A stretch of DNA of 64,000 nucleotides. Source: Dehalococcoidia bacterium (GTDB taxonomy: Bacteria; Chloroflexota; Dehalococcoidia; Lucifugimonadales; UBA3495). Below are positions 27,673 to 61,940 of this stretch, in pieces. Below the pieces are notes generated by a model, which saw only the letters and a program-made list of their open reading frames with translations, was not told the origin of the DNA and searched no databases. The DNA is taken from assembly GCA_965237775.1 (NCBI GenBank), contig OZ250155.1, forward strand, positions 17,084 through 81,083, in the 5' to 3' direction. Position 1 is the first letter of the stretch, and every line of letters starts with the position of its first letter. Both the position numbers and the translations under genes were made by a program.

Positions 27673-27813
27673 CCCGTACTCCTAGGGGATTTCCCTACGG
27701 TTTCACCCCTTTTCTATGACATCCCCCCTGCATCGGCACCTACAGGAATCGCAGGACGCTCCCCCACCGAACTGTCCGGTGGTTGTAGCTGATGGTGGGG
27801 TATTTCAACGGGC

Positions 27814-31878: not shown

Positions 31879-32120
31879 GCGGTTACTGTCAGGGTGCCTT
31901 CGAAGCTGCGCAGGGGAGTCATCTCCGGGGGCAGTGCTTGCCCATTTTCCTTGCGCAGTTGGATGATGGTCTGTGCTACTGCCAGAAGGCTTTTAAGTGT
32001 TTCTTCCGGGGTCTCCCCCCAGGCCATGCAACCCTGTAGCGCCGGAATTTCGGCCAGGTACATCCAGCCCTCGCTTTCCTCGGGTTCGTGGAGCACGTAG
32101 TCCAGCTGGTATAGGTCCAT
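31875..32120 (-). CDS. hicB: HicB-family antitoxin (short form without a DNA-binding domain)
   Basis: The 81-aa ORF contains GWMYLAEIPALQGCMAWGETPEETLKSLLAVAQTIIQLRKENGQALP, which is UPF0150/HicB-like. Confidence 0.75.
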   Translation of the reverse strand: MDLYQLDYVLHEPEESEGWMYLAEIPALQGCMAWGETPEETLKSLLAVAQTIIQLRKENGQALPPEMTPLRSFEGTLTVTA

Positions 32121-32414
32121 CTTTTTCCTCCGGTCTGGACGTTCGCTGCCGTGGAATCTTTTCCATTTTGCCCTGCTGAATTGTTCTGGTCAAAGGGCTG
32201 TCTTTCAGCGGGGTTTTCACTTCATTGGTTTCGCAATTTTCTCCCCGCAGGGACCCCAACACCTGTCAGTATTGGATCAGAGCTAGGAGGAGCCAACCAA
32301 GTCCATCATCAGGGCGCGATTGCCCTGGCCAGAATCCCCAGGCCAATCGCATCTTAGTCAAGTTCTAAGAAATTGGTTAAATCAGGGTACAAGTTCTTGG
32401 TGTGAGGGAGGAAG

Positions 32415-33654: not shown

Positions 33655-34070
33655 GACGCGATCGCCCTGCCGTCATCTTGAAGAATTGGACGCAGCTACA
33701 AGCCATTGCGTATACGATGCCGGATCGGCCGCTTTCTTCAGGCACCAAGACCTGCCTGAACGGATGGCCGCAATTTCCTGGCCGCTGTGGGAATAGTCCC
33801 AAGTAGTCCGGTAAGTTCCAGCCCTACGTGTGGGAATAAATGTGGGAATAACCAGAGTTGCAGGCCGTAATCGCCGTGATTTAGCTTCGGTTTTTGGATT
33901 ATAATACTGCCACTCCCTCCGCCAGTCATATCCTCTATATCAGATACAACACCCCTTCCTCAGCTACGAGATTAGCTTCAAATCACCCGATTGCCACTGT
34001 CCATTGCGGGTTGTTGCGTCCATAGAAATTCATTACAATCCAGGTCAAAAATGTACACGAAAGTGTACAC

Positions 34071-35285
34071 GTGAACATGGGGGAAATGGCAGTGGCCGCA
34101 GGGTTGACCGACAGGCGAGCAAGGACGATTAAGAAACCTGGGGAGTACTCCGACGGCAGCGGCTTGTATCTCCGGATCGACACCAAAGGGGGTAAGCGGT
34201 GGGTCCAGCGGATTAAAGTCAAGAACGGGCCCTTGCGTCACCTCGGCTTGGGGGCGTTTCCGGTGATCACGCTCGCGGAGGCCCGAGAGACTGCCTTGGC
34301 CAACCGGAAGATGGCCCGCCTCGGCATCGACCCGTTGGAGACTCAGAAGCAGGCTCGCGAGGAACAGGAGCGGGCCGAGTCCGTTGTCAACTTTTCCGAG
34401 GCCGCCGAACGGGTGATAGCGTTGCGGCGGCCAAGCTGGAAGAACACCAAACATGCCGCGCAATGGGCATCTACTCTTCGGACCTATGCGTTTCCGGCAA
34501 TCGGGGATCTGCCGGTCGGAGAGGTTACGAACGCGGATGTCCTGAAGCTCTTGGAGCCGATCTGGACTGCCAAGCCCGAGACGGCCCGGCGCGTGCGCCA
34601 GCGCACAAAGACAGTCTTGGACTGGGCGATTGCCCAGGGTTATCGCAACGACAACCCGGCAGGAGAGTCACTGAACGCAGTGCTCCCCAGGTTGCCGCGT
34701 ACGAAATCACATCACCCGGCCCTCCACTACTCCCAGGTGGCGGGCGCCATAAGCCGGGTCTACGAATCTGATGCCGAGCTTGTCACCAAGTTGTCGTTCG
34801 AGTTCTTGGTGCTGACGGTCACGCGGTCCAACAATGTCCGGGGAGCTGAATGGAGGGAAGTGGATATGGACTCCCGGACCTGGACCATACCTGCGGCGCG
34901 GATGAAGGGGACGGAGATGACGGCCGGGGAACACCGGGTCCCGCTGTCCGATAGGGCTATGGGAGTGCTGGCAGAAGCGCAGGCCCTCTGGTCCGATTCG
35001 GAGTGGATTTTCCCGGGTCCCCGTTCTGGACGCCCATTGTCGGACTCGACCCATAGCACCTTGCTACGAGACTTGGGCGTACCGGCGGTTCCCCACGGGT
35101 TTCGCTCTAGCTTTAAGGACTGGTGCATCGAACAGACGGATACACCCTGGGCGGTGGGTGAAGCGGCGCTTGCCCACACTCTTGGCAACTCCACCGAAGT
35201 GGCCTACGCAAGGAGCGACCTGTTCGACCGGCGGCGCCAACTGATGGACGAGTGGGCGGCCTACTTGGTGGCCCGCCGCGCCTAG
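34071..35285 (+). CDS. int: Tyrosine integrase with an N-terminal Arm-type (DUF4102-like) DNA-binding domain
   Basis: The N-terminus reads LTDRRARTIKKPGEYSDGSGLYLRIDTKGGKRWVQRI. The catalytic region contains TRSNNVRGAEWREV, HGFRSSFKDW and LAHTLGNSTEVAYARSD (R...HxxR...Y). The true start may be the ATG at 34077 or 34086. A direct repeat of TGTACAC at 34052-34058 and 34064-34070 abuts the start. Confidence 0.9.
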   Translation: MNMGEMAVAAGLTDRRARTIKKPGEYSDGSGLYLRIDTKGGKRWVQRIKVKNGPLRHLGLGAFPVITLAEARETALANRKMARLGIDPLETQKQAREEQERAESVVNFSEAAERVIALRRPSWKNTKHAAQWASTLRTYAFPAIGDLPVGEVTNADVLKLLEPIWTAKPETARRVRQRTKTVLDWAIAQGYRNDNPAGESLNAVLPRLPRTKSHHPALHYSQVAGAISRVYESDAELVTKLSFEFLVLTVTRSNNVRGAEWREVDMDSRTWTIPAARMKGTEMTAGEHRVPLSDRAMGVLAEAQALWSDSEWIFPGPRSGRPLSDSTHSTLLRDLGVPAVPHGFRSSFKDWCIEQTDTPWAVGEAALAHTLGNSTEVAYARSDLFDRRRQLMDEWAAYLVARRA

Positions 35286-39256: not shown

Positions 39257-40363
39257 GTGATGACGAGCCGTAATGCTGTGAATCCTGAAATGATTCGGTT
39301 GGCCCGATTGTCTCGCGGCAAGTCCCAAGCTCAACTTGCCTCGTTGATTGGTGTTCCTTCATCTGAGGTATCCCGGTTCGAATCCGGGATTAGGGCCGTT
39401 ACCGATTCCTTGATGTTGAGGATTGTGGGCGCTTTGGGATATCCCATCAGTTTCTTTACGAGATATCCTCGTTTGGAAGGGCCTGGAGCGGACGTGACAT
39501 TCCACAGGAAACGAAAGAGCGTTAGCAATACCAGGTTGAATCAAATTTACGCTTTGGCGGACATCCGCCGTCTGGAGTTGGAGAAACTCTTAGAATTTTG
39601 CCCTCAAGAGGTGACAGTTCCTGATTATCCAGTTGATCTATTTGATGACGATCCTACGAAGATTGCCCGCTCTGTCCGAGCGGCAATGAGGGTTCCGCCT
39701 GGTCCTATCTTCAATGTGACCAAGATTCTTGAGCAAGTTGGCTGTGTGGTTGTGACTCACGATTTTGGCACACGTCAGGTTGATGGTTTCAGCCGGCGGC
39801 CCTTGATGGGTCCGCCCTTTTTTCACATGAATGCTGGGCTTCCGCCGGACCGATGGCGTTGGACTCTGGCTCACGAGTTGGGTCATGTGGTGATGCACCC
39901 GGACCCTTTGGTGTCTCCAAAGGTAGTTGAGCAGCAGGCAGACCAGTTTGCCGGGGAATTCTTAGCGCCGGCGGCAGAGTTGCAGCCCGTGCTGTTTAAC
40001 CTGAGTTTCCAACGGTTGGCTGGTTTGAAACTTGAGTGGAAGATTTCCATGCAGGCGTTGGTAATGCGGGCATACCAGTTGGGGACAATCACTGACCGTC
40101 AACGTGTCAGTATGTTCTCTCGGTTATCGAAAGCAGGATACAGAGTTCGGGAACCTTCGACTTTGGACCCTCCCCTGGAGCCACCGGAGCGCCTTTTTCA
40201 ATTGTCCAAGTTGTATATGTCGCGGCTTGGGTATAGCCGTTCGGAACTCATGGATTTCCTTGCTATCGGTGATCTGGACTTCCAAGTTTACTACCATGAT
40301 CCGAGGGATGTTCTCCCAGGGTTGGAAAGCGACGATGAGTGGTCTATTCCCGGAGTCGGCTAG
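39257..40363 (+). CDS. Fused XRE-family HTH and ImmA/IrrE-family (DUF955) zinc metallopeptidase
   Basis: The N-terminal HTH reads IRLARLSRGKSQAQLASLIGVPSSEVSRFESG. The HEXXH site reads RWTLAHELGHVVMH, followed by ADQFAGEFLAP. Confidence 0.85.
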   Translation: MMTSRNAVNPEMIRLARLSRGKSQAQLASLIGVPSSEVSRFESGIRAVTDSLMLRIVGALGYPISFFTRYPRLEGPGADVTFHRKRKSVSNTRLNQIYALADIRRLELEKLLEFCPQEVTVPDYPVDLFDDDPTKIARSVRAAMRVPPGPIFNVTKILEQVGCVVVTHDFGTRQVDGFSRRPLMGPPFFHMNAGLPPDRWRWTLAHELGHVVMHPDPLVSPKVVEQQADQFAGEFLAPAAELQPVLFNLSFQRLAGLKLEWKISMQALVMRAYQLGTITDRQRVSMFSRLSKAGYRVREPSTLDPPLEPPERLFQLSKLYMSRLGYSRSELMDFLAIGDLDFQVYYHDPRDVLPGLESDDEWSIPGVG

Positions 40364-40903: not shown

Positions 40904-41425
40904 CTAGACTTGCCAGCCTTCGAATTTGAACGTGCCCAGAGCTAGGGTTTGTTCTGCATCGCTGTGGTTCCAGGCGGCAAATCGAACCAGCACGACGGTG
41001 AGGCCATCTTTGTCAAAGTCAAGGTCGGAAACACCTCCTCTCACAGCCGATGTTTCGTGATTTGCATTTGATACCCAACTGGCGTCAGACATTTGAAATG
41101 CGACTTCGCACACCACATCGTTCTGTTTCGCTGGCAGCTCCCACGACGTTGGGATGATGGAGTGGTAGCCATTAGCAAGGGAGAAATCTGCAAGCAAGTG
41201 CCAGCCCGATGCGTAGGTAATGGAGGCCGGTGTAAGCTCCTTGTGGAAGTTGGCTGCCAAGCCTTGAGTGGCCGTCACTAAGTAACCGCCGCTGGACTGC
41301 ACTCCGTCTGCCAGGAGCGATGCCATCTTCCGGTTGCGCGTGCCCCACTGGTCCTGCCAGCGTTCTATGCGTTTCACCCGGGCCGCCAGTTCAGCGAATT
41401 GGTCCACGAAGTCTCTTTCACGCAT
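40904..41425 (-). CDS. Phage tail-module protein of unknown function (173 aa)
   Basis: The call rests on position downstream of the distal-tail-like gene, with a 1-nt start/stop overlap at 41425. I recognised no motif. Confidence 0.4.
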   Translation of the reverse strand: MRERDFVDQFAELAARVKRIERWQDQWGTRNRKMASLLADGVQSSGGYLVTATQGLAANFHKELTPASITYASGWHLLADFSLANGYHSIIPTSWELPAKQNDVVCEVAFQMSDASWVSNANHETSAVRGGVSDLDFDKDGLTVVLVRFAAWNHSDAEQTLALGTFKFEGWQV

Positions 41426-42363
41426 TAGGTCACTCTGAAGTAAGCGGCATCGTTGTGCTCAACAAAATTCCCATATCGTTGGGCTACCCCCTGGCTCACC
41501 AGTTCCTCGACCTCCATCAAGACCCAGGGGACTCCGGCATCCCCGTTGTTGACCCCAATCGTAGGCAGGTAAATCGAAACCTTGTCTCCAGGTTCAATGA
41601 CCCAATCAACTATGCGGAACCGTCCTTCCCAGAGGTCGAACTTTCGTTGCTCCAGGATCGACACTCCTACCGTCCCGAGCGCCACGAGGTCAATAACATC
41701 ATTCTCCTTGGTTACTAAATCCCTCACACCATAGGCAGACTGGGAATTCGAGTCTTCAGAGGTGACGCGGACCGGCCAATTCGCGCTAACCGATGGGTTG
41801 TCATCTCCAACAACGGTGATCCTGTTTCTGGGGTCAACCTTCGGCTGGATCCCGAAGGGAATGCCGATGTCGTTCTCGGTAATGGTCACTGCCGCAGTGC
41901 GGTCGGTGTGGCCTCGCGGTTGTACGAATAGTTTTTTCTGAATGCCGTTGTTATTAGCGCCGTTGTGCCCGACCCACCAGGTCCAGTCTGGCAAGAAGCG
42001 GTGGACGATTTCATTGGTCAAGTTCGCTAGTGTGTCGAAACCGGGGCTGAACCTCTCTGGGTGGGTCAAATCATGGTCGACTACTCCACCGCTGTCAGTG
42101 TCTACCTCGCCCCAATGGATGAACCAATAGCCCTTGAGGGCATCGGTGTATTTTGTGCCCTCGGTCGAATAGAAGGGGAGAGTCCCTTTCCATGATGCTC
42201 CGTGAGATAGGTCAACTACTCTCGGGTATATGTTGAAACTGCCCGGAGCTTCAACCTGTATTCTGGGGCGGTCTATGAATCCACCAAAAACCTTCCTGAT
42301 TCCGTCAACCGTGATGATAAGTTCGCATTCACGTCCTGTACGGATGAGATTGCGAAGAGACAC
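41425..42363 (-). CDS. Phage distal tail / baseplate-like protein (312-aa ORF; the true 5' end is probably at 42493 in another frame)
   Basis: The gene lies immediately after the tape measure gene. A 22-codon ORF (MAVTTLVRVHNGAAWQTVENNQ*) starts in a TAATG overlap with the tape measure stop at 42493 and is out of frame (+1) with the 312-aa ORF. Confidence 0.45.
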   Translation of the reverse strand: MSLRNLIRTGRECELIITVDGIRKVFGGFIDRPRIQVEAPGSFNIYPRVVDLSHGASWKGTLPFYSTEGTKYTDALKGYWFIHWGEVDTDSGGVVDHDLTHPERFSPGFDTLANLTNEIVHRFLPDWTWWVGHNGANNNGIQKKLFVQPRGHTDRTAAVTITENDIGIPFGIQPKVDPRNRITVVGDDNPSVSANWPVRVTSEDSNSQSAYGVRDLVTKENDVIDLVALGTVGVSILEQRKFDLWEGRFRIVDWVIEPGDKVSIYLPTIGVNNGDAGVPWVLMEVEELVSQGVAQRYGNFVEHNDAAYFRVT

Positions 42364-42492: not shown

Positions 42493-44172
42493 TTAGCGCA
42501 CCCCGTCCATCGAGCTACGGACTCGGTTGGCGATGGAGTCTATGTCTGACTCGTCACGAATCACCAGGCCGTGGAAGTGGTTGACCACAGTAATGCTTCT
42601 CCCTCCGGTGAGTGGGTTGCTCCCTGCCCCCAGCGGGATGATGGCCTCGTTGGGCATCACCGACACCAACCCGGCGCCCCGGGTAATCGCCCCCTGGTGG
42701 GCCGTGGGGATCTGGGTGGTCTGAGCGGCCCTTACCGGCTCGCCGGAGGCGATGGTTGGTATCTCCCCGATGTTCACGCCGGGTATCGCATTCATCGCGC
42801 CAATCAGTTTGTTAATCAACCCGATGATGGGGTTGATGAAAAAGGCGGCTGTGTCCTTCACCTTGCCCCACAGTTCGCCCCAACCCCCGGCCATGTTCTT
42901 CAGGGCCAGCAGTATCCAACCGGCGGGGCCGAGGAACAGCAGCAACTTATCGAAGTTGGCCGCGATGAAGCCCACCACCGCGCTGAAGACCGTGCTGATG
43001 ACGTTCCACACCGTCTCCCAATTGGTGAGCAACAGCCCGAGGACCACGATCAGGATGCCAATACCAGAAGCCACCAAGACACCGCGTAGACTCACGGCCA
43101 GAAGCCGTGACGTAATCGCGGCTACCCTCTGTGACTTCGCAAGGGCCGTCAGACCCTGGACCGCGAGGCCCGCCCCCTGGACCAAGGCCCCAAGGCCGCT
43201 GGCGACAGGACCTGCGGCTAGGGCAAGGCCGAGCATTAGGATGGTTGCGGTCTTGAGCGGTCCGGGCAGGGCGTTGAACGCGCCCAGCATGGTCTCCAGG
43301 GCCGGTATCAGCGTCCTCAGCAAGTTGTCGGTGGTGTTGGATAGCTCCGCCTGCATCTGCTGAAGCCTCTCCGCCTCGTTCAGAGTCGCCAGGTCTGCCT
43401 CCGCCAACTTCTGACTACCTTCTTCCAGCACGGCGTTCAACACGATCTGAGACCGGGTGGCCTGGTCCATTTCTGCCGTGGCGACCCCCATCGTCTCGGC
43501 GTACTTGGCGAACAACTGCTCACTACGGATGGTGAAACCAGAACTAATCAGCGTCTCGGCGGAACCTTGGGCAATCGCTTGCGTCATCCTCTGGAAAGAC
43601 TCGTCCACGGCGCCGCCCAACTCCCGGGCTTGGAGCCGGGCCAACTGCCACAACTGCGTCATCTGGCCCATGTCCTTGCCAACACCCAGCGCCAACGACC
43701 GCGTGGTAGCGGCTTGGAGCGCGGTGTCGTCGATAATGCCGCCGGTAGCGTCGCGGATGGCCTTCATCATCTGGTCGGCGCTCAAGCCCACGTTGTCCGC
43801 GGTGCGGCGGAACTGGCTTTCCACCTGCAAGCTGGTGGCGATGTCGTTGAACTTGGCGAACGCCAACCCAGCCGCAGCCAGGGGAATCGTGACGCCGGTG
43901 GTGAGGGACTGGCCCGCCTGGGACATGGAACGGCCCGCAGTCCTCATGGACTGGCCCGCACTCTTCATCCCATCGGTGAGGGACCGCCGTATTCTCTGGC
44001 CCGCGGTCTCGGCGGCGCGGCCAGTGTCCTCGACCTGCCGCTCCGTCGATTCCAGGTCCCGGTTGAGCTGCTGTGTGGCGCGCTGGACCAACCGCTGCGC
44101 CTGCTGGAAGGCGCGGCTGATCTCATCCTTCCCCTCGATGGGGATTTCGAGTGCGAATTGGCGGCTGGTCAT
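42493..44172 (-). CDS. Phage tail tape measure protein
   Basis: The 559-aa ORF has an N-terminal coiled coil (RAFQQAQRLVQRATQQLNRDLESTERQVEDTGRAAE), Ala/Gly-rich hydrophobic segments (TATILMLGLALAAGPVASGLGALVQGAGLAVQGL), and the expected position after a chaperone-like gene. Confidence 0.85.
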   Translation of the reverse strand: MTSRQFALEIPIEGKDEISRAFQQAQRLVQRATQQLNRDLESTERQVEDTGRAAETAGQRIRRSLTDGMKSAGQSMRTAGRSMSQAGQSLTTGVTIPLAAAGLAFAKFNDIATSLQVESQFRRTADNVGLSADQMMKAIRDATGGIIDDTALQAATTRSLALGVGKDMGQMTQLWQLARLQARELGGAVDESFQRMTQAIAQGSAETLISSGFTIRSEQLFAKYAETMGVATAEMDQATRSQIVLNAVLEEGSQKLAEADLATLNEAERLQQMQAELSNTTDNLLRTLIPALETMLGAFNALPGPLKTATILMLGLALAAGPVASGLGALVQGAGLAVQGLTALAKSQRVAAITSRLLAVSLRGVLVASGIGILIVVLGLLLTNWETVWNVISTVFSAVVGFIAANFDKLLLFLGPAGWILLALKNMAGGWGELWGKVKDTAAFFINPIIGLINKLIGAMNAIPGVNIGEIPTIASGEPVRAAQTTQIPTAHQGAITRGAGLVSVMPNEAIIPLGAGSNPLTGGRSITVVNHFHGLVIRDESDIDSIANRVRSSMDGVR

Positions 44173-44474
44173 CGGTTACGCCTTAGCCTCTGGTACTGGC
44201 GCTCCGTCTCCTCGTGCTGGTACTCCAGTGCGTCCAGCAGAGCTTTACGCTGGAGCGGTGTCATCTCCGCCTGCGTCCTCGCGGGCGGTATCCCGGCCTG
44301 AGACATCAGAAGCATCCTCATGCCCGCCGTTCTGACCAACTCGCCCCATTCCCGCACCGTCTCGAAACGTGTCCTCTTGGTCCAGGATGCCGCTGATCCG
44401 TTGCACCACCCGGGCCAGGGCTTCCACCCAGGCGGCGGGCATCTGTCCCGCTTGCTCGTAGGTGCATTCCTCAC
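44169..44474 (-). CDS. Alternative-frame ORF overlapping the chaperone gene 3' end (possible frameshift extension, or a short separate gene)
   Basis: The C-terminal half (REWGELVRTAGMRMLLMSQAGIPPARTQAEMTPLQRKALLDALEYQHEETERQYQRL) looks protein-like. Its stop overlaps the tape measure ATG (ATGA at 44169-44172). It lies in the +1 frame relative to 44245..44748. Confidence 0.4.
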   Translation of the reverse strand: MRNAPTSKRDRCPPPGWKPWPGWCNGSAASWTKRTRFETVREWGELVRTAGMRMLLMSQAGIPPARTQAEMTPLQRKALLDALEYQHEETERQYQRLRRNR

Positions 44475-44748
44475 CTGAGTGGGAAAGGCCGAATTGGACC
44501 GTAATCACACGGGCCTGGTGCTGCTTCTCCAGCAACAGTGATATGTCCTCAACCACGGGCGTCGCATTGACCGCCGCGCCCTCGACCTGCAAGTCGGCGC
44601 GGATGCCCTGAAGTTTCATCTGCTCCACCCGGCCAGCTTCGGCGCTGCTGAGCGGCCTGACCAACACGTCCTTCGGACCGTTGTGGGCCGAAAGGTCAAC
44701 GGGCTCCAGGTGGTTAATGCCGTTCAACAGCGCTTCCAGTTGTCCCAT
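44245..44748 (-). CDS. Putative tail assembly chaperone
   Basis: This 167-aa ORF lies between the gp10-like gene (TAATG overlap at 44748) and the tape measure gene. Its last 50 residues or so are low-complexity and probably not native. Confidence 0.5.
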   Translation of the reverse strand: MGQLEALLNGINHLEPVDLSAHNGPKDVLVRPLSSAEAGRVEQMKLQGIRADLQVEGAAVNATPVVEDISLLLEKQHQARVITVQFGLSHSGEECTYEQAGQMPAAWVEALARVVQRISGILDQEDTFRDGAGMGRVGQNGGHEDASDVSGRDTAREDAGGDDTAPA

Positions 44749-45261: not shown

Positions 45262-45930
45262 TCAGGGAACCGTGATCGTCTCGGTGACATACTCGCTTAT
45301 GCGCTCGTTCCCCTCGGAGTCCGTAATCCTCGTGGCGGCTTTCACCGTGAACGGACCGCTTTTGAAGGCCGGAGCGCTACCAGACACCCTCCCATCAACA
45401 ACGGATGAGGTGGTATGGGAGTAGACTCGCTGGGAGCCTTCCCGCATTTCATACCTGTACTCTGCGCCGTCTGGCGCGCCGGGCGGTACGTTGAAGGACC
45501 AATGTACTCTCTTAGAGCTCAGTAGACGGAGAGATAGATTCACTGGAGCAGGCAGAAGGGTCGAAAAGGCTTCGGACAGCATGTTGCTCGTGCGTTCCGA
45601 GTGATCCTCATCGACCGAAATTTGGGCCCCCCCCCCCGATCCATCTCCCGAATGCTCCTCTACCGTCACGCCAGACTTCACGGATACCGACGCCACGTAG
45701 CTCAGGCCGGGTTTTAATCCCTCAACCACCACAGGAGACACCACAGAGTACGTGGTGTTCACCGGAGACCCGTCGAGGGCCACCTGGACCTGGTAGCCAT
45801 AGCCTTCCGGTAGGGTTTCTGGACCCTTCCACCCGACGCTAACGGAGTCTTGTCCAGGTGCCAGACCCAAGTCAGATATCTGTACCGGCTGGCCGGTGAA
45901 ACTCTCACTGGTTAGCAATATCGTGTTCAT
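45262..45930 (-). CDS. Protein with two FN3/Ig-like domains (virion-associated candidate)
   Basis: The 222-aa ORF has two beta-sandwich-like halves (VSVGWKGPETLPEGYGYQVQV...GLKPGLSYVASVSV and VHWSFNVPPGAPDGAEYRYEM) joined by a linker encoded across a G11 run. Confidence 0.55.
   Translation of the reverse strand: MNTILLTSESFTGQPVQISDLGLAPGQDSVSVGWKGPETLPEGYGYQVQVALDGSPVNTTYSVVSPVVVEGLKPGLSYVASVSVKSGVTVEEHSGDGSGGGAQISVDEDHSERTSNMLSEAFSTLLPAPVNLSLRLLSSKRVHWSFNVPPGAPDGAEYRYEMREGSQRVYSHTTSSVVDGRVSGSAPAFKSGPFTVKAATRITDSEGNERISEYVTETITVP
45627..45637. repeat. C11 homopolymer (G11 on the coding strand) inside 45262..45930
   Basis: The sequence tttgggCCCCCCCCCCCgatcc is visible directly. It encodes the GSGGGA linker between the two FN3-like halves. 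Confidence 0.95.
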
Positions 45931-45999: not shown

Positions 46000-48804
46000 T
46001 TATGATCCGTAGTCCTCTTCCTCGTCGTCAGACCCCATGTCGTAGTCACCGTCATCGTCGTCACCACCGCCGCCGCTGCCACCGTTGTCCTCTTCCTCGT
46101 CGTCACCACCGCCGGACTCCTCATCCTCAAGGTCGTCGTCGTTCCCACTCCCGCCGGAGCCGGAGTCATCATCATCGTCTGCTCCTCCGCTAGCATCGCC
46201 TCCGGTGTCCTCCTCTTCGTCGTCACCACCACCACCGCCTCCGGCGTCCTCTTCCTCATCGTCCCCTCCGCCAGCATCGCCTCCGGTGTCCTCCTCTTCG
46301 TCATCCCCGCCGCCGGAGTCGTCATCGCCGGAGTCGTCGTCATCGTCGTCGTCGTACCCGTGACCGCCTCCCGAGCCAAAACTGGAGGAATCGCTGCTGG
46401 AGGAACTGCTGCTGGAAGAGCCTCCTCCGGCATCTTCCTCATCTTCGGTCTGGCCTCCAATGGTGCCCTCACCGGCTCCCCCGGAGCTGTCACCCGGAGG
46501 GTCAGCGGGGGTGGATCCGAACTCTCCCATCTCCTCCTGTAGCTGTTCCTCCATGCTGACTTGGGGGATGGCTTCCGGTTCCGGTTCCGGTTCGGGTTCG
46601 GGTTCGGGTTCGGGCGGTGGCGGGGGGTCATCATCACCGTTACCAGAGGGGGTCGCGGTGGTTCCTTCTCCAGGGGGGGTCGCGGTGGGTATATCGGGCG
46701 TCTCGGGGCCATTCGGTGGCTGGCCTTGCCCATCATCGTCGTCATCGTGAAACCCAGGGGTCTGTGGTGTCACCACCACGGCTCCCTGCGGTTGCTGCGC
46801 CACGGCTGCCGGAGGTAAAACTGGGGGCGTCACGACCGCCGGCTTAACCCCTACGTCCCCTTGAATGGACGCGAGAACCTCGACTTGTACATCAAGCTCC
46901 GCCGCAGTTTTGACCACTTCCTCGGTGTCGTCTTCAGCCTGCTCCAGCGCTTGCTCTGCTACTTGAGACAACTGCTGCGCCTGCTCGGCGTAATCGTCGG
47001 CTCGTTCCTGGGCCGCCTGCGCTACGGCTACATCACCCGAATCCTGGGCGGCCAGCGCCTCGTTCAAAGCGTCTTGAGCAAGAGTGCTGAGGTCTTGCGC
47101 CTGAGCCGACGCATCCACCGCGATCTGATGGGATTCGGCCACCTGATTGGTCAGCGCCTCGATACGCTCCGCCAGGTCCGAAATCTGAGTGGATACATGG
47201 GCTGCCTGGTCCGATAACGCCGCCAGTTCCCGAGCTTCATCCGCAGCCTGAATCGCATCCAGCGTGTCGTCTCCTGCCAGGGACTCGGCCCTCGCCGCCT
47301 CAGCCGCCTGTGTTGCAAGGTCAGAAATCGCTCGGGAATTGATTGCCGCTGCTGACGCCGCAATAGTGCTATCAACCACGATGCGAGCGGACTGGCTTAC
47401 CAACTGCGATGCTGCTTGGGCGTCATCACGAGTGGATTGGGCTGCTTCAGTGACGGTCTTAAAAGCCGCCTTCGCTTCGTCCGCAGACGCTTCCGCCGCG
47501 GTCTTCTTTTTGTCCTTTGGTTTCTCGGGGACCGGCACTACCCCCTTCTTCTTCTCTTTCGGTTTGACCATCGCAGGGGCGCTAGGCGTCCCGGTAGCGG
47601 CGACCCAACCACTCGCAGCCTCAAAGACTCCTGCTGGGTTGTAATACACCGCCCTCACCCGGACCTGGTAGGGGTCCGGCACCAAACCGGTAAGATTGTA
47701 AGCCTCGGTGTACACGTAAATCGGGGTTGCGGGAGTCCACTCCGTCCAGTCGGTGTCTCCGGTATCCGGGTTTTCTACGAGGAATTTGTACTGCATCTGG
47801 TAGACGTCGGTTGACGGGTTGAACGAGGCTGGCCGCACCCAGCCAATGAGTAGTTGTCCAGGGTTCAGGCCCGGGTACACCGCCAAGCTACCGGGCGCTT
47901 CGTAGGTCCTCGGCACTCCTGACGTGGGTGTGCCGTAGGCGTAGGCGTACAGGATGGGCGCGTCCACGTCCGGGTCTGCGTCGCCACAGACGGTCTTGGC
48001 TCTCACCTGGTGCCGCTCCGATCCCAATCCCTCCAGGATCAAACCGTTGCCGGTCACGGAGTATGGCGGCACGGGAAGCCAGCCGCTCCAGTGGTGTTCG
48101 CCGGTCTCGGGTATCTCGTGCTCGACCCGGTACTCCAGCTCGAAGTGGTCCTTGGCCGGGTCGAACCCCTCAGGGTCTGTCCATGTGGCCGAGAGTTGGC
48201 CGACGGTGCCAGTGGGCCTGGCCTGCATAGCGACGGGCGCCGGGCATGGCGCCACGGTCACGACCGGGGGCCGCGGGGTTACTCTTCCCGTAACCCACGG
48301 ACTCACCATCTCCACATTACCGTCTGCGTCGAAGCAGACTGTCCGCACTTGGATTTGGTGCTCTACGGTGGGAAGTCCGCGCACCGTGAAGCTCGTGCTG
48401 GTTGTCCGGGCTGCGGGATCGGGAGTCCAAGGGTCCCAATTCAGATCCCCGGTCTCCTGGTCTTCGGTGGCGCCCCGGTGCTGATACTCGAAGCTGTGTG
48501 TGTTCGGGTCGAAGCTCGGCGCCACCACCCAGGAAGACGTGAATCCGAACACCAATGCGGCCAGGCTGAGGTTTTCGGGAGGGTCGCATTGTGTGATAAC
48601 CGGCGCGCCAAGGGTCGCTCGTGCGTATACCTCCTCGCTCATGCCTTCTATATTGCCGTTGGAGTCGTAGCAAACGGTCCAAACCTTGAACAGGTAGGTG
48701 CCAGGGTCCATGCCAGTAAGGTGTTGGTCCGTGTCTCCAATGACCAGGGGAGTTTGGGGAATCCACTCGGTCCAATCCCCCGTTTCAGGGTCCCCTATTG
48801 CCAT
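46000..48804 (-). CDS. Giant-gene segment 3: FN3-like repeats, a coiled coil of about 250 aa, a Pro-rich region and a polyacidic Asp/Glu/Gly tail of about 190 aa
   Basis: The 934-aa ORF has recurrent FN3 signatures (FDPNTHSFEYQHR...ETGDLNWDPWTP; FDPAKDHFELEYR...ETGEHHWSGWLP; FNPSTDVYQMQYK...DTGDTDWTEWTP). An Ala/Gln/Glu-rich helix follows, then (PE)7, then a tail such as GGDDEEEDTGGDAGGGDDEEEDAGGG. Confidence 0.75.
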   Translation of the reverse strand: MAIGDPETGDWTEWIPQTPLVIGDTDQHLTGMDPGTYLFKVWTVCYDSNGNIEGMSEEVYARATLGAPVITQCDPPENLSLAALVFGFTSSWVVAPSFDPNTHSFEYQHRGATEDQETGDLNWDPWTPDPAARTTSTSFTVRGLPTVEHQIQVRTVCFDADGNVEMVSPWVTGRVTPRPPVVTVAPCPAPVAMQARPTGTVGQLSATWTDPEGFDPAKDHFELEYRVEHEIPETGEHHWSGWLPVPPYSVTGNGLILEGLGSERHQVRAKTVCGDADPDVDAPILYAYAYGTPTSGVPRTYEAPGSLAVYPGLNPGQLLIGWVRPASFNPSTDVYQMQYKFLVENPDTGDTDWTEWTPATPIYVYTEAYNLTGLVPDPYQVRVRAVYYNPAGVFEAASGWVAATGTPSAPAMVKPKEKKKGVVPVPEKPKDKKKTAAEASADEAKAAFKTVTEAAQSTRDDAQAASQLVSQSARIVVDSTIAASAAAINSRAISDLATQAAEAARAESLAGDDTLDAIQAADEARELAALSDQAAHVSTQISDLAERIEALTNQVAESHQIAVDASAQAQDLSTLAQDALNEALAAQDSGDVAVAQAAQERADDYAEQAQQLSQVAEQALEQAEDDTEEVVKTAAELDVQVEVLASIQGDVGVKPAVVTPPVLPPAAVAQQPQGAVVVTPQTPGFHDDDDDGQGQPPNGPETPDIPTATPPGEGTTATPSGNGDDDPPPPPEPEPEPEPEPEPEAIPQVSMEEQLQEEMGEFGSTPADPPGDSSGGAGEGTIGGQTEDEEDAGGGSSSSSSSSSDSSSFGSGGGHGYDDDDDDDSGDDDSGGGDDEEEDTGGDAGGGDDEEEDAGGGGGGDDEEEDTGGDASGGADDDDDSGSGGSGNDDDLEDEESGGGDDEEEDNGGSGGGGDDDDGDYDMGSDDEEEDYGS
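46573..46614. repeat. Hexanucleotide tandem repeat (ttccgg three times, ttcggg four times) encoding (PE)7
   Basis: The repeat is visible directly and lies within the giant-gene segment 46000..48804. Confidence 0.9.
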
Positions 48805-49451
48805 TGCGTACTCGAACAGGAACTGTGCTTGGAAGGGTCGAAGCCTTCAGGTTCATTGAAGGTGAGGACCAGCGTGCTGGGAGGCGAAACGGTGACCCCA
48901 AGGTTCTCGGGCGCGGGACAGGCATCGACAGTTGCAGGAGTTGCTGAGGCATCGACGGGAACGCTTCGGCAGACCTCAACACCCGCCTCATCGTGATAGA
49001 CCACCGCAACTCGAAACTCGTGGAGCACCGGGTCGAGCCCGTTGATGATGAGACCCTTACTGGTGACCACCCAGGATTCGACGGGCCACCAGGGCACTTC
49101 GTTCATCTCCTCGGCGACTGCATCCCATTCGATCTTCCTGGCCTGGACCTCGTAGTGGTGGCGTGCGGGGTCATGGTCTTCCGCATGGGTCCAGGCCAAT
49201 TGCAGTTGCCTAGCTTTCTTGGCGGGAAACGCCCGGAAGAACAGGGGTGCATGGAGCCTGGCCGTAAACTCTCCGGTGATGACACCGCTGTACAAGGGGT
49301 CGGTTCTCCAGGAGACATGCGACCTGGTGGCGACGCTGAACGTATAGGGAACGCAGGGGTCGAGGCCGTAGACCACTCCCGGAGGCACGGCGATAGTCTC
49401 TTCCTCTTGGGTATCGTCGTCCTGGTCTCGGTTGGTCTCCCAGAAAATCAC
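48795..49451 (-). CDS. Giant-gene segment 2: two FN3-like domains
   Basis: The 218-aa ORF ends with FDPSKHSSCSSTQWQ*. In the -1 frame the same DNA reads ...FLFEYAMAIGDPETGDWTEWIP, which completes the FN3 signature and runs into 46000..48804. Confidence 0.65.
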   Translation of the reverse strand: MIFWETNRDQDDDTQEEETIAVPPGVVYGLDPCVPYTFSVATRSHVSWRTDPLYSGVITGEFTARLHAPLFFRAFPAKKARQLQLAWTHAEDHDPARHHYEVQARKIEWDAVAEEMNEVPWWPVESWVVTSKGLIINGLDPVLHEFRVAVVYHDEAGVEVCRSVPVDASATPATVDACPAPENLGVTVSPPSTLVLTFNEPEGFDPSKHSSCSSTQWQ

Positions 49452-50401
49452 CCGGTAAGCCGAACCACTGGGCCGTTCGGAGGGGTGTCGAAGTCCACTA
49501 CGGCGGTGCCAGCGGCTCTGCCGGGCTTCAGGGTCAAGTTGCTGGGGTCGGGGATAAGACCCGTTAGGGTCAGGGTGAAATCGCCAGTCTCCTGTTCAAA
49601 CGTCGTCGCTTCGACTGTGTACATGCCCGGGTTCAGGTCGATGACCAGCCGGGAGTCGGTGAGTGAGCCACTGTCATCGTCGGACGCGATTATTGTTCCA
49701 GATTTACCGCGGCCTTCCAGAATGAAGACGTAGGGATTCTCTGCCGATTCCAGGTCCAGCCTAATCCGCGTCGGGTAGCTGAGCGAGAAGGCGAAATACC
49801 TGGCGTACATGCCAGAGCGGTTAACGGATAATAGGTCGGCACCATAGCTCCCTTCGCGGATCACCCGGTCACCCGCGTTCAGGACTCCAAGCCACTCGAT
49901 CTCATGGACGGGAGGCGCGTCGCCCGCGCCCGACACGTCCACCAGCACCGTTATCTCTTCGCCGGATTTCTCCGCGTTGGCCAGGGAGCGGCCGATGATG
50001 GGCTCATCGGCGGAGGTCGCTTTCTTGACCAGAGCAACGGGATGCCCCTTGAGAAACTTGGTCTCCATCGCGGGGGTCAAGGGGTCACCGATGGATACTG
50101 CTCCCGTTGCGCTGGCCTGCGCCAGACCCCGGACCACCAGTTGCACCGGGTCGTCTTTCCCGGTGCTCCGGTCGCCCAACGACTCGTCAGACTTGGTATG
50201 GACGATGCCGATGACGCGCCGAACGTCTACGCCCTCCTTCATTTTGAACAGCCGTGGCAAATTCAAAGAATTCGGGGCCTGCTGGATACCCAATACGTCT
50301 CCAGCAGCCAGAATCTCCCCTGCGCGGAAGTACTCGTCGATGATGATCCGGCGACCCTCAAACCCTTCACTTGTCAATACTGGTACTGGCACTTCTATCA
50401 C
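49448..50401 (-). CDS. Giant-gene segment 1: DUF2190-like beta-barrel, PPC (pre-peptidase C-terminal)-like domain, and the start of an FN3 domain
   Basis: The 317-aa ORF has a GTG start preceded by GAAGAAGAGG. Its N-terminal domain is paralogous to the C-terminal domains of the four protease genes (VPVLTSEGFEGRRIIIDEYFRAGEILAAGDVLGI...VIGIVHT...LVVRGLAQA...IGDPLTP...IIGRSL...ITVLVDV). The PPC-like part reads YFAFSLSYPTRIRLDLES...ASDDDSG...GMYTVEATTF...GDFTLTLTG. Confidence 0.7.
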   Translation of the reverse strand: MIEVPVPVLTSEGFEGRRIIIDEYFRAGEILAAGDVLGIQQAPNSLNLPRLFKMKEGVDVRRVIGIVHTKSDESLGDRSTGKDDPVQLVVRGLAQASATGAVSIGDPLTPAMETKFLKGHPVALVKKATSADEPIIGRSLANAEKSGEEITVLVDVSGAGDAPPVHEIEWLGVLNAGDRVIREGSYGADLLSVNRSGMYARYFAFSLSYPTRIRLDLESAENPYVFILEGRGKSGTIIASDDDSGSLTDSRLVIDLNPGMYTVEATTFEQETGDFTLTLTGLIPDPSNLTLKPGRAAGTAVVDFDTPPNGPVVRLTG

Positions 50402-56795: not shown

Positions 56796-57365
56796 CTACT
56801 GCCGGGATGGGGTATGGCCTGCATCCGCGATGTCCACCAGCACTTCAATGTCTTGGTCGGCGCCGGGGGTCACCGTAAGGCACCGGCCCACAATCAGGTC
56901 AGTGCTGGCAGTAGCGGTCTCCACCCGAGAAACGGTCGCGGAATCGTTGTGCTCGTAGGGGGTCACGCTGTCACCCACGCCGATGGCCGCGGCGGACTTG
57001 GCTTTCGCTACCCCCTGGATCACGATGGGGACCAGTTGACCATCCGACGCAATATCATCCCCGACCGACTTCGCCGACGGGGTATGGACTATGCCGATGA
57101 CCCGCCAGTCGTCCATCGTTGAGGTCATCTTGTAGACCTTCGGATCGCTGCCATCCGCCTTGATGCCTACCACGTCGCCAGCCAGGAGCTCTTCCCCGGC
57201 GGTGAAGTAGTCATCGACGATCAACCGTTGTCCTACGAAACCTTCGCTGGTTAGAATCGGAATTCCCATCTCTGCTTCACTCCTTGCAAAACTGACATTG
57301 AGAGCCTTTTCGATTACCGTTGCGGTGGAGACGCAAGCGGTCTCGCCCGAGTCTCCCCACACCAT
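56796..57365 (-). CDS. Cassette 4 remnant: intact DUF2190-like domain preceded by only the tail of a protease domain
   Basis: The 189-aa ORF starts MVWGDSGETACVSTATVIEKALNVSFA, which parallels GDSGAP...ELDITFG of the full copies. It continues MGIPILTSEGFVGQRLIVDDYF...VIGIVHTPS...LVPIVIQGVAKA...IVGRCL...IEVLVDI. No His or Asp region is present. Confidence 0.55.
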   Translation of the reverse strand: MVWGDSGETACVSTATVIEKALNVSFARSEAEMGIPILTSEGFVGQRLIVDDYFTAGEELLAGDVVGIKADGSDPKVYKMTSTMDDWRVIGIVHTPSAKSVGDDIASDGQLVPIVIQGVAKAKSAAAIGVGDSVTPYEHNDSATVSRVETATASTDLIVGRCLTVTPGADQDIEVLVDIADAGHTPSRQ

Positions 57366-57875: not shown

Positions 57876-59648
57876 CTAGCCGACTAACTGGGATCGACTC
57901 TGGAATATGGTCTGCTCATACAGGAGGAGAGCGTGATACCATTCCAGGCTGGCCTCTGGGTGTTCAGTCAAATACCATTGGTCAACGTGCTGCTCGTCCG
58001 GGCCGGTTGACAAGGCGAGAATCCCATCGATGAGTTGGTTACACCAAGTATTTTCTTGAGCCACGTACGGGTCGCCGTTATCGTCTAACCGGAATCGGCC
58101 TGGCATACCACCGGCACACCAAGGCGAATAGTAGTCCCGGATATCCCCATGCCCGTCGCCCCTAGTTCGGCCGTTCCAATCGAACTGGAGAGCCAGTAAT
58201 TTGTCCATCCAGTAATCGATCCTGGGCCTCACCCAGTCCATGCCTTCTTGATTGCCGATGAATTTGCAATATTGCCAATACATGCAGCCAACTTCGACCA
58301 CTCGGACTACCCAGTCTGAATACCAAGGAGACGATTGAGGGCACACTACTGGCGGATTACGCCATACGAGATTCGCGGAGTCGAAAACGGGGGAAGTCAC
58401 GTTTATTGAGCCAGCCGCAATGTTGTTCTGGATCGTGAGCGAGTCCTTCCCTTCAAAGCACTCCTCAAGAAAAAGCCGACAAATCTCGATGCCGGAACCA
58501 GTATTAGGACCCGCCCACCATGGCTTCTCGTCTCCATATGCGATCAAGGCCGTTGCTGCCGCCTGAGTCTTTGAGTTTACGGACCAAGGGAATCCGACTT
58601 GGGAATATCGTTGCCGATTACCCTCGCCAGCAGCTCTCGAGATATGCGGAGTCCATGCAAAAATGTTAGCGTTCGCCGAGTTGCGGATCGTGTCTGGCCA
58701 TAAGTCATTCTCAAGGAACATCTCAGGTGTTATCGGCCACCAGGTCTCCCAAGAGAACTCAGCGCCCTCAAAAAACTCTCGGCGCAACAAACCGAATGTT
58801 TGCTCGTATAAGTCGTGCTTACTCTTCAGAAATTCCTTAGCAGCATTCATGACCTTGACGCCGTTGGTGATGTCTTCTCCAGTGCCGAGTTCGCGGAGTA
58901 CGTACCCTGCGATCCAGTTCAGATCAAGCATCGCGAACTCGTTCCAGGACCAAAACTCACCAGGTCCCATATCTTGCTCGCGGCAACGAATTCTCCAAAG
59001 AAGGGTCTTGGGATTACCTGCAACGAGGAGGCGGTCCGGGAGCCAAAGGAGATTCATTTCACCTGCAGAGTCAAGACTCTCGTACCAGATGAAAGCCTCA
59101 CTTTCCCCATCCGAGTAGTCGCTCCCACCCCATCGGACTTCATTTATGAATTTCACGGTGTGATAGGTCTCGTATGTCACCGATTCACGGCCGGAGATCG
59201 GGAACGGCCAACCCGAAGGCAGGGTGGGGAAATCGGTAACCACCTTCGAATTTGGGTCCCGGAAACTGACCGCTGTCTCGTAACGCTGCCAACTATAATT
59301 CGGAAGGCTGTCTCCGAACTCTATTTCCGATGAACCAAGGTGTGCATGGGCCATCCGATTAAAGTGGAAGATTCGATAATCTCCCTTCAGGAGCACCTGG
59401 TCATACTCCACTCCCTCAGAGTCGAGTCGACTTTGAGAACTGGGACGTTCGCCAGTATTCGGTATTAGGCCAACAACAGGCGGATACTTCCCAGTGGTGA
59501 ACATCCGCCAACGGTCTTCACCATTCGGAGCGTAGGCGATGGGAGGAGATAGCTCCTCCTGATTAGCGGCCAAGGGTTTACTTACGCAGCGGCGAATGAA
59601 CGCGGCGGACAGTTTCTTAGCCTTGTCCAGTTGCTCTCGGGTTGGCAT
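57876..59648 (-). CDS. Trp-rich 590-aa protein of unknown function (AT-richer patch)
   Basis: This long ORF has no competing frame and no signal peptide. I recognised no motif. An alpha/alpha-toroid-type enzyme is only a guess, based on W/Y/F-rich composition. Confidence 0.55.
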   Translation of the reverse strand: MPTREQLDKAKKLSAAFIRRCVSKPLAANQEELSPPIAYAPNGEDRWRMFTTGKYPPVVGLIPNTGERPSSQSRLDSEGVEYDQVLLKGDYRIFHFNRMAHAHLGSSEIEFGDSLPNYSWQRYETAVSFRDPNSKVVTDFPTLPSGWPFPISGRESVTYETYHTVKFINEVRWGGSDYSDGESEAFIWYESLDSAGEMNLLWLPDRLLVAGNPKTLLWRIRCREQDMGPGEFWSWNEFAMLDLNWIAGYVLRELGTGEDITNGVKVMNAAKEFLKSKHDLYEQTFGLLRREFFEGAEFSWETWWPITPEMFLENDLWPDTIRNSANANIFAWTPHISRAAGEGNRQRYSQVGFPWSVNSKTQAAATALIAYGDEKPWWAGPNTGSGIEICRLFLEECFEGKDSLTIQNNIAAGSINVTSPVFDSANLVWRNPPVVCPQSSPWYSDWVVRVVEVGCMYWQYCKFIGNQEGMDWVRPRIDYWMDKLLALQFDWNGRTRGDGHGDIRDYYSPWCAGGMPGRFRLDDNGDPYVAQENTWCNQLIDGILALSTGPDEQHVDQWYLTEHPEASLEWYHALLLYEQTIFQSRSQLVG

Positions 59649-60084: not shown

Positions 60085-61940
60085 CCTAGAAGTCTGGCCG
60101 GAAACTGTCCATTTTGATGCCAGGGGTTATACTCCGGGGTATCAAAGATAGCGGAGCAAGGGAATGCTGGGAGAGCGATCGGATCAGAGGGGCTTCTGGG
60201 AGGCGGACCGGCTGTATCTGGACCACGTGGGTAAGGACACTTTCTACGGCCTGTTGGCATCGTTGAGAGGCCAACTATTCCGGGACTCCGACTTCGCCGA
60301 GTTCTACTGCGCCGACAACGGCCGGGACAGCGTGCCGCCCAGCCTGCTGGCCACGGCGCTGCTGCTGCAGACCCACGACAAGGTGAGCGACGCCGAGGCC
60401 AAGGCCAGAGCCGACTTCGACATCCGCTGGAAAGTGGCGTTGGGAATTGAGGTGGAGGACAGGCCCTTCGCCAAGAGCACGCTCCAGGTGTTCCGCGCCC
60501 AGTTGATTCTCCACGACAAGGTGCGGGCGGTGTTCGAGTCCAGCCTGCGGCTGGCCCGGGAGTCGGGCTACCTAAAAAAGCGCGGCATGCGGGTGGCGCT
60601 GGACACCACGAACATCCTGGGGCGGGGCGCCGTGAGGGACACCTTCAACCTGCTGGCGGACGGGATTGTGAAGCTGCTGCGGGCGCTGGCAGCCGTGGAG
60701 AGGTCCAATGTCAAAGGATGGGCCGAGGCCCAGGGGTACGGGCGGTACCTTGCATCCAGCATCAAGGGAGAGTCGGCCATCGACTGGTCCGACAAGGGGG
60801 CACGGGCGGGGTTGCTGGCCACGATTGTGGCTGACGCCGACCGTCTGTTGGAAGCAGGGCGGCAGGCGCAGGAGGCTCTGCCGGAGGGCAGCCCTGAGCG
60901 GCAGGGCATCGTCGCGGCGGCGGAGTTGCTGGGGCAGTTGCTGCTCCAGGATGTGGAGCGCACCGGCGACGGTATTGGTCTCAAGGACGGGGTGAGCAAG
61001 GACCGGATGGTGTCGGTGCATGACCCGGAGATGCGCCACGGCCACAAGAGCAGCAGCCGTCGCTTCGACGGGCACAAGGCGGCGATTGTGGTGGACACCG
61101 ATACCCAGCTCATTACTGCTGTGGAAGTATTGCCCGGCAACGCTCCGGACAACCTGGGGGCCTTGGAACTGGTGGAACGGAGCGAGGCCAATACCGGTGT
61201 GCCGGTGGAGGAGGCGCTGGGCGATGCCGCTTATGGCGACGGCGATACCAGGCAGGCCTTCGCCGACGCGGGACGGACCCTGATTGCCCGGGTGCCGGGC
61301 CGTCCGAACCGGAAACACTTCCCGAAGGATGACTTCCGGATTGACCTGGCGGCGGGAACCTGCACCTGTCCGGCGGGTCAGGTCACCCGGAAGCTGCTGC
61401 CGGCGGGGAAGCGGACCGGTTCCACGGGACGGACTCACCGGCTGCAAGCCTTCCGGTTCGATGCGGCGGTGTGCGGAGCCTGCCCGCTGCGCTCTCAATG
61501 CGTGGCCGGGTCATCGGGATTGGGGCGAACGGTCCAACTGCACCCGCAGGAGGCTTTGTTGCAGCAGGCCCGGGCCCTGCAGCAGAGCGAAGCCTTTGCC
61601 GGGTATTGTCAACGCCGGGTGGTGGTGGAGCACCGGCTGGCCCGGCTGGTGCAGCTGGGGATTCGCCAGGCCCGCTACTTCGGTCGGACCAAAACCCGGT
61701 TCCAGCTGTACCTGGCAGCCACGGTGGCCAACCTGACCCTGCTGGCGGGCAAAACCGGTTTGACAGGCGATATTGGTGGCGCTGCCATCGGCTACCGTGA
61801 CGCCTGGGCCGGCGCCGACAGTGCTACAGCAACATTTGGTGCAATCCGGCTCGGTCTGATTTGGCCGCTGGCGTTGCTGACGCCGGCCTTTCTGCCTAAA
61901 GCCCTCTTCTCAACCAAGGCTTTTCATCCGCATTTCTAGG
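60085..61940 (+). mobile_element. IS1182/IS5-superfamily insertion sequence, copy C, 1856 bp
   Basis: It has the same ends and internal ORFs as copies A and B. It is inserted between the convergent genes 59677..60084 and 61936..63165. Confidence 0.9.
60164..61939 (+). CDS. IS1182/IS5-like DDE transposase (591 aa)
   Basis: Its translation is identical to those of the other two copies. Confidence 0.9.
   Translation: MLGERSDQRGFWEADRLYLDHVGKDTFYGLLASLRGQLFRDSDFAEFYCADNGRDSVPPSLLATALLLQTHDKVSDAEAKARADFDIRWKVALGIEVEDRPFAKSTLQVFRAQLILHDKVRAVFESSLRLARESGYLKKRGMRVALDTTNILGRGAVRDTFNLLADGIVKLLRALAAVERSNVKGWAEAQGYGRYLASSIKGESAIDWSDKGARAGLLATIVADADRLLEAGRQAQEALPEGSPERQGIVAAAELLGQLLLQDVERTGDGIGLKDGVSKDRMVSVHDPEMRHGHKSSSRRFDGHKAAIVVDTDTQLITAVEVLPGNAPDNLGALELVERSEANTGVPVEEALGDAAYGDGDTRQAFADAGRTLIARVPGRPNRKHFPKDDFRIDLAAGTCTCPAGQVTRKLLPAGKRTGSTGRTHRLQAFRFDAAVCGACPLRSQCVAGSSGLGRTVQLHPQEALLQQARALQQSEAFAGYCQRRVVVEHRLARLVQLGIRQARYFGRTKTRFQLYLAATVANLTLLAGKTGLTGDIGGAAIGYRDAWAGADSATATFGAIRLGLIWPLALLTPAFLPKALFSTKAFHPHF

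Follow-up and report, generated by a model that had tools for sequence, protein, structure and literature searches.

The 64,000-nucleotide stretch analyzed here (the window; forward-strand positions 17,084 to 81,083 of contig OZ250155.1, assembly GCA_965237775.1, from a Dehalococcoidia bacterium) carries a prophage in which one giant gene on the minus strand (46000..50401) is interrupted. The gene would have approximately 1,464 to 1,467 codons with two missing bases restored, and it is read as three consecutive open reading frames (ORFs) in three frames: ORF A (49448..50401, 317 amino acids [aa]), ORF B (48795..49451, 218 aa), and ORF C (46000..48804, 934 aa), all on the minus strand. In stop-to-stop translation, neighboring frames overlap, with the frame of ORF B open upstream to 49595 and that of ORF C to 48846. 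Both changes of frame, from A to B (junction 1) and from B to C (junction 2), are −1 steps. At junction 1, frame A has the C terminus ...DTPPNGPVVRLTG* / ...VVDFDTPPNGPVVRLTG* (asterisks denote stops), and the −1 frame reads ...SGSAYRVIFWETNRD. At junction 2, frame B has the C terminus ...FDPSKHSSCSSTQWQ* / ...EGFDPSKHSSCSSTQWQ*, and the following −1 frame reads QFLFEYAMAIGDPETGDWTEWIP. A scan for zero-frame X_XXY_YYZ heptamers found none in the two overlap windows (49595..49448 and 48846..48795), in which the longest homopolymer is CCCC and neither of which contains a run of A or T.

Alignment with related loci assigns one missing base to each junction. The lesion at junction 1 maps to about 49469..49474 on the minus strand, where the window (CCGAACG-GCCCAG) has one base fewer than five relatives (L003, CCGAACGCGCCCAG; L001 and L002, CCGAACGCCCCCCG), while the sixth, L006, stops short of the site; downstream of this lesion, frame A ends at the TGA at 49450..49448. 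The lesion at junction 2 maps to about 48824..48825 on the same strand, where the window (AAGCAC-AGTTC) has one base fewer than all six relatives (L003, AAGCACAAGTTC; L001 and L002, AAGCATGGGTTC), and frame B subsequently ends at the TAG at 48797..48795. The true start of the giant gene is likely the GTG at 50392 and not 50401, because a Shine-Dalgarno-like GAGGTGA motif precedes this GTG, the orthologues and the gene call P0009 begin with MPVPVLTSEGF, and every copy of the N-terminal module described below begins at residue 3. A preliminary description of this DNA, made from the sequence alone, had reported the three ORFs and two −1 steps, which the ORF listing and translation bear out, and the lack of a slippery heptamer, with which the scan of both overlap windows agrees. 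Its estimate for the second junction (near 48815-48822) was close to the aligned lesion, and its gene limits stand for the ORF coordinates but likely not for the start.

One gene with an intact orthologue

Six related loci (L001 to L006) were compared, all on long-read metagenome contigs in ENA and derived from two samples and four independent lineages. In L002 (a 274-kb contig with 7x coverage), a single ORF of 1,604 codons (11245..16059 of that locus) covers A, B, and C in this order and is 92.5% identical to the giant gene of the window at the nucleotide level. In an alignment of the seven sequences over the structured part of the gene (the first 1,220 codons), the two 1-nucleotide (nt) deletions are the sole uncompensated indels of the window, which also has an in-frame 6-nt deletion at about 48775. 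The relatives are in frame at junction 1 in five of five covering loci and at junction 2 in six of six. Consistently, an exact-sequence look-up placed ORF B in a 90%-identity cluster with P0010, a 915-aa metagenome protein that reads continuously over both junctions (...DTPPNAPRGSAYRVIFWETNRD... and ...EGFDPSKHGFKFQYAMAIGDPETGD...). We also calculated the ratio of nonsynonymous to synonymous substitution rates (dN/dS) per segment in the repaired frame using the Nei-Gojobori method. The values were 0.11-0.16 for segment A, 0.13-0.5 for segment B, and, for segment C, about 0.25 in the FN3 part and mostly 0.26-0.42 in the helical part; based on these values, which lie around 0.2, all three segments have evolved as coding sequence in one continuous frame under purifying selection. 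These data show that A, B, and C are one gene, as the preliminary description had proposed, with single-base gaps exactly at the two junctions relative to an intact 1,604-aa orthologue.

The synonymous divergence between the window and its relatives is mosaic. Relative to L003, it is 0.93 in segment A and 0.02 in segment B, and relative to L005 it is 0.97 in segment B and 0.37 in segment C. This pattern indicates that these prophages recombine with one another, including within the giant gene. A scan of the genomes of species representatives with the L002 protein gave no match, so the genome of the window and its close relatives are not among these representatives. An exact look-up of the window proteins P0008 and P0011 returned no independent assembly on record, and the sole match of the region in a blastn search of a phage collection, 190 bp of a Dickeya phage, is irrelevant.

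The restored gene would encode a protein of several domains (all on the minus strand) beginning with an all-beta N-terminal module of approximately 155 aa (49910..50392), which we identified by fold match as a putative capsid-binding base. The module is followed by a PPC-like beta-sandwich domain (pre-peptidase C-terminal type; 49559..49924), recognized by its similarity to PF04151 repeats. In BLASTP, this domain is 38-42% identical over 100-127 aa (E 4e-25) to the four tandem PF04151-annotated repeats of P0002; the PF04151 hidden Markov model (HMM) gave no match to it at E≤10. A homologue search with the joined N-terminal 943 aa, in which the candidate words were saturated by PPC repeats, returned PPC-repeat proteins only.

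FN3 domain 1 (49257..49549) is split by junction 1, its N-terminal part lying in frame A and the remainder in frame B. In the L002 protein, PF00041 matches aa 282-362 with 31.2 bits (cutoff, 25), a region that spans junction 1. In the window, the joined A+B fragment matches profile positions 2-74 with 23 bits, below the same cutoff, and neither fragment alone gives a match. FN3-like repeat 2 (48921..49256), recognized in the repeat alignment, lies in frame B and carries an HDPARHHYEVQ... signature. FN3-like repeat 3 (48589..48920) is split by junction 2, with FDPSKH in frame B and QFLFEYAMAIGDPETGD... in frame C. When joined, repeat 3 aligns over junction 2 with the four other FDP..H.FEY...ETGD..W..W.P repeats, with gaps confined to two variable loops and the C-terminal end, and the orthologues read it without interruption (...EGFDPSKHGFKFQYAMAIGDPETGD...). 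Repeats 4, 5, and 6 (47587..48588, with starts at 48588, 48246, and 47898) lie in frame C. A profile of repeats 2-6 gave weak matches among PDB sequences (E 9e-4 to 0.7), almost solely to FN3 domains (FN3con, IL-6R, Tencon, and neogenin), and a homologue search with the FN3 region returned one fragment, P0040. We therefore describe this region as one canonical FN3 domain and, on the strength of these weak matches, five divergent FN3-type repeats.

Farther downstream lies a segment of approximately 225 aa rich in Ala, Gln, Asp, and Glu (46849..47523; A 25%, Q 11%). On this composition, we presume it to form a stalk of alpha-helical or coiled-coil type; it had no match among PDB sequences. The protein ends in a tail of approximately 250 aa rich in Gly, Asp, Glu, Ser, and Pro (46003..46752; G 24%, D 22%, E 14%) and, judging by this composition, presumably disordered. 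The length of this acidic tail differs between strains by 123-nt (41-aa) units and shorter indels. In the L002 tail (about 15000..16056), a short out-of-frame-looking stretch, DDFRGRLWGRLWGRLWGMIPGD, lies inside a GDDS repeat and is probably a local assembly or slippage effect. Overall, the architecture outlined in the preliminary description mostly stands: for the PPC-like domain, by sequence identity, and for FN3 domain 1, in the orthologue. The N-terminal module is DUF2190-like by fold only and is not matched by the Pfam HMMs, and repeats 2-6 are matched weakly. Its placement of both shifts inside domains is correct, with junction 1 in FN3 domain 1 and junction 2 in repeat 3.

Lesions in the relatives and the origin of the frame changes

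The giant gene is intact only in the strain represented by L001 and L002, while the other sampled strains are each broken elsewhere. L003 (20x coverage) has a TGG>TGA change at 12244 (VIF*ETNRD). L005 (15x) and L006 (6.8x), which have 100% identical sequences and come from two samples, share a CGA>TGA change at 5747 and 1283, respectively (WVNG*VTP). L004 (9x) has two 1-nt insertions, at about 11360 and about 11780 (codons 454 and 593). L001 (3.17x) has two insertions in C runs and is otherwise 100% identical to the intact L002, and therefore these insertions are clearly assembly errors. The compared sequences thus contain genuine nonsense mutations as well as long-read indel errors. L003 and L004 also carry fragmented protease paralogues.

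A third indel of 1 nt affects the minus-strand gene directly after the tape measure gene, where the window carries an additional A at about 42432 (GAGAAC-ACCAG to GAGAACAACCAG). This gene, which encodes 353-355 aa in L002, L005, and L006, starts at an ATG at 42493 that overlaps the tape measure stop. In the window, its product reads MAVTTLVRVHNGAAWQTVENNQ* before the frame changes, and the gene continues in another frame as the ORF 41425..42363. The remaining prophage genes that were compared and have a window homologue can each be aligned in a single frame from end to end.

We consider it probable that the giant gene was a head-fiber or decoration gene of a resident prophage that has been broken by two real, recent single-base deletions and is decaying, and that the changes of frame are not programmed. 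Under this scenario, translation from the start would end at the TGA at 49448 after approximately 314 residues, giving a product that contains the module and the PPC domain and breaks off early within FN3 domain 1, and the approximately 1,150 remaining codons would be out of frame. The lesions would be recent and part of a decay of cryptic prophages that is also under way in related strains. Two programmed −1 ribosomal frameshifts, or transcriptional slippage, yielding the full-length fiber are very improbable. Both junctions are indeed −1 steps, and a generic terminator scan scored a weak hairpin (49465..49450) just before the frame A stop, the total of such matches being below shuffle expectation; however, we reject this explanation because slippery heptamers and A or T runs are absent from the overlap windows, both shifts lie within domains, and no covering relative shares the frame change, all being single-frame at these positions. 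Moreover, the relatives are broken at different places by lesions of different kinds. The preliminary description had held indels or decay to be at least as likely as a programmed shift, and the lack of conservation and of slippery sites strengthens that assessment. That A, B, and C are independent, separately translated genes hardly comes into consideration. The GTG start of ORF B overlaps the ORF A stop (GTGA, 49451/49448), which would permit termination-reinitiation, ORF C has an ATG at 48804, and ORF B is a protein of its own in the gene call P0008. But both boundaries cut FN3-type domains, the frames are open and homologous upstream of both starts, and orthologues in the form of three independent genes were looked for among the six loci, none of which (0/6) has these gene boundaries.

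A rather unlikely but weightier alternative is that the gene is intact in the organism and that the two missing bases, together with the extra base near 42432, are consensus errors in a long-read metagenome-assembled genome (MAG). Several observations fit such errors and at the same time weigh against real deletions: the deletions are not distinguishable from consensus errors on assembled sequence alone; the relatives are themselves long-read metagenome contigs, one of which (L001) has assembly indels and differs from L002 only by the two C-homopolymer insertions; the 5.12-Mb contig of the window may itself be a long-read MAG, and the module family described below was restricted to Dehalococcoidia MAGs, which include many chromosome-level assemblies from long reads; three single-base indels in approximately 7 kb are a high density; and dN/dS has no relaxation specific to the window lineage, which fits a very recent mutation and an error equally well, so that the lesions are either very recent or not real. 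On the other side, all three window indels lie outside homopolymers of 3 or more bases (GCGCCC>GGCCC, CACAAG>CACAG, and GAACACC>GAACAACC), and non-homopolymer single-base indels are unlike typical long-read consensus errors. In addition, the window contains three copies of an insertion sequence (IS) that do not differ by a single base or indel over 1,856 bp, the single 5.12-Mb contig suggests good coverage, and the nonsense mutations of the substitution type in the relatives, one of them found in two samples, demonstrate that real decay of this gene occurs. The indel near 42432 and the IS copy inside the prophage (60164..61939) also speak for real mutation, as does the single-frame alignment of the other compared prophage genes.

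The N-terminal module and its possible place on the capsid

The window contains five paralogous copies of the N-terminal module, all on the minus strand (49910-50392, 50494-50955, 52282-52770, 54155-54637, and 56817-57263). The copy in the giant gene is 40-48% identical to the other four, in line with the preliminary description, which had called it a fifth paralogue of a module of the proteases. One copy is free-standing as a 189-aa ORF (56796..57365), while the three others form the C-terminal parts of proteins of 493, 407, and 390 aa. Two of these three proteins have a subthreshold N-terminal match to Trypsin_2 (E 3e-4 and 0.013) and a GDSGAP-like motif; a capsid-decoration anchor fused to proteases would be unusual.

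Structure prediction of ORF A without an alignment was unusable (predicted local distance difference test score [pLDDT] 36.5). Using an alignment of 30 sequences, we obtained an AlphaFold2 model of the module that is all-beta, with a pLDDT of 88.1 and a predicted template modeling (TM) score of 0.82. In Foldseek, this model matched the N-terminal base of the phi29 head fiber gp8.5 (6qyy; E 4e-5, TM score 0.48-0.62), chain G of the capsid asymmetric unit of cyanophage Pam3 (8hdt_G), and chains in the capsid structures of Sf11, T1, FCWL1, HFTV1, and TW1. Matches in BFVD were to proteins named DUF2190, head fiber protein, and scaffolding protein. Among protein families, PHROG 673 ("head scaffolding protein") matches three of the paralogues (E 1e-5 to 9e-3) and leaves the giant protein unmatched. 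A literature search on DUF2190-type phage decoration returned no papers.

The fold model and the architecture support that the giant protein is a head-fiber or decoration protein. The N-terminal module would attach to the surface of the capsid, where it would probably form trimers at quasi-threefold positions, and the PPC-like domain, the six FN3-type domains, the long helical stalk, and the acidic disordered tail would project from it, presumably for adhesion to surfaces or cells. The preliminary description had suggested a capsid- or particle-anchored fiber of the Hoc or head-fiber type; the fold and the architecture (AlphaFold2 and Foldseek) agree with the head-fiber type, and binding to the capsid itself would follow by extension from them. 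Four points count against a place on the capsid. The giant gene has a Phage_tube_2 gene to one side and the tape measure gene to the other, and a tail location is possible. No major capsid protein was identified in the prophage, in which a neighboring 590-aa protein (57876..59648), a candidate for it, had no match in Pfam or PHROG. The fold similarity is moderate (TM scores of 0.5-0.67 at 14-20% identity), and no Pfam family, including DUF2190 (PF09956), matched the ORF A module or two of its paralogues at E≤10.

The module is rare. An exhaustive HMMER search with a module profile found 79 cluster representatives among 1.84 billion proteins, and in a scan of a genome collection the module occurred in Dehalococcoidia MAGs only, a distribution that by itself makes a host of this class probable. 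A homologue search with the module alone that did not use HMMER returned nothing, not even the window's own protein. Some relatives carry the module followed by arrays of fn3 and PPC domains and reach up to 2,579 aa; others have a protease-like domain before the module and arrays of PKD, Big, or cadherin-like domains after it. A more far-reaching proposal, which we regard as doubtful, is that Dehalococcoidia prophages have in the module a portable capsid anchor of their own, which displays several cargoes at once on a single virion, that the fiber gene is repeatedly lost or truncated, and that the frameshifts mark selection for a short decoration form and not neutral decay. The cargoes would be trypsin-like proteases (three paralogues), the bare module, and an adhesin-like fiber of 1.5-2.6 kaa. 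The truncated products of the window and L003 end within 8 nt of one another on the aligned DNA, leaving the module and the PPC domain. We do not count these matching truncation points (aa 317 in the window and approximately aa 318 in L003) as evidence, given an approximately 10% chance that, with four independent first lesions in 1,220 codons, a pair would fall within 11 codons.

Prophage setting and comparison with known systems

The prophage begins with an integrase gene (34071..35285) and a repressor-like HTH_3/Peptidase_M78 gene (39257..40363), followed by structural genes on the minus strand, among them those for the tape measure (42493..44172) and Phage_tube_2 (61936..63165), and extends beyond the end of the window. 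The L005 and L006 loci end with the same integrase and repressor pair. The IS mentioned above encodes a 591-aa DDE transposase, and its three copies (20835..22610 on the minus strand and 23512..25287 and 60164..61939 on the plus strand) are 100% identical over 1,856 bp. The third copy lies inside the prophage immediately after the Phage_tube_2 stop, and L003 and L004 have IS630-type (DDE_3) insertions at about this position. Directly downstream of the giant gene, a 222-aa gene (45262..45930, minus strand) has an FN3 match that, at 26.8 bits, exceeds the Pfam threshold; L005 and L006 have fragments in its place.

Two overlapping minus-strand ORFs precede the tape measure gene (44169..44748): 44245..44748 (167 aa) and 44169..44474 (101 aa). 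Frameshifting in tail-assembly chaperones (G/GT) is usual just upstream of the tape measure gene. Here, the 101-aa ORF is offset by +1, not −1, and may be spurious in GC-rich DNA. The prophage flank (1..34000) is a mobile and defense island with GmrSD (11893..13983), an N6/N4 DNA methylase (14330..15325), and IS66, IS110, and other DDE transposases, some of which are truncated. A scan of the whole window for tRNA genes found none.

For annotation, these results argue for merging the three ORFs into one frameshifted locus instead of listing three hypothetical proteins or a recoding event. The locus is also a cautionary case, in that paired −1 junctions in a phage structural gene with Ig-like domains mimic programmed frameshifting, an impression that one intact orthologue dispels. 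There is nothing unusual about the frame changes, whether they are consensus errors or single-base deletions at two sites of a prophage gene that is dispensable. The protein, by contrast, is mildly new. It is a very large putative decoration protein of head-fiber type from a rare, uncharacterized family, and its anchor is rare, confined to Dehalococcoidia, and elsewhere fused to protease-like domains. If such proteins are truly displayed on the capsid, they would widen the range of head decoration known from phages of a host group that has been little studied.

Programmed −1 frameshifts, as in the tail chaperone G/GT or where Ig-like domains are appended, share with the giant gene the −1 relation, the phage structural module, and an Ig-like downstream part. 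Unlike these systems, the giant gene has no slippery site, and its shifts cut through domains and are absent from the orthologues. A string of Ig-superfamily domains, as in the giant protein, also makes up T4 Hoc and other Ig-like adhesins displayed on capsids. Hoc is thought to mediate weak adhesion and is dispensable for infectivity; its capsid-binding domain is C-terminal and unrelated to the window module, and at approximately 40 kDa it has no PPC domain, coiled coil, or acidic tail.

The DUF2190-type decoration or cement proteins (Pam3, 8HDT; T1, 9KZJ; Sf11, 9OCB; FCWL1, 9KMG; HFTV1, 8QSY; TW1, 5WK1) have the same fold as the module. Phage capsid structures contain them as small beta modules, of which some phages encode several; these proteins have been reviewed (PMC7602432). 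The window module differs from them in having no Pfam match and in being fused to long C-terminal arrays or N-terminal trypsin-like domains, and five paralogues occur in this one prophage. In phi29 gp8.5, the N-terminal approximately 110 residues form a trimeric base at quasi-threefold capsid positions, and the remainder is the projecting fiber (PMC6542822). Like gp8.5 (6QYY and 6QVK), the giant protein has an all-beta N-terminal base followed by an elongated, presumably projecting part with a helical stalk. The two differ in size (280 aa versus approximately 1,465-1,604 aa) and are only 14-15% identical, and the giant protein adds the PPC-like domain, six FN3-type domains, and the acidic tail of approximately 250 aa; by analogy, it may bind as a trimer at quasi-threefold positions. 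The phi29 prohead can assemble without head fibers, which would fit a tolerated loss of the giant gene.

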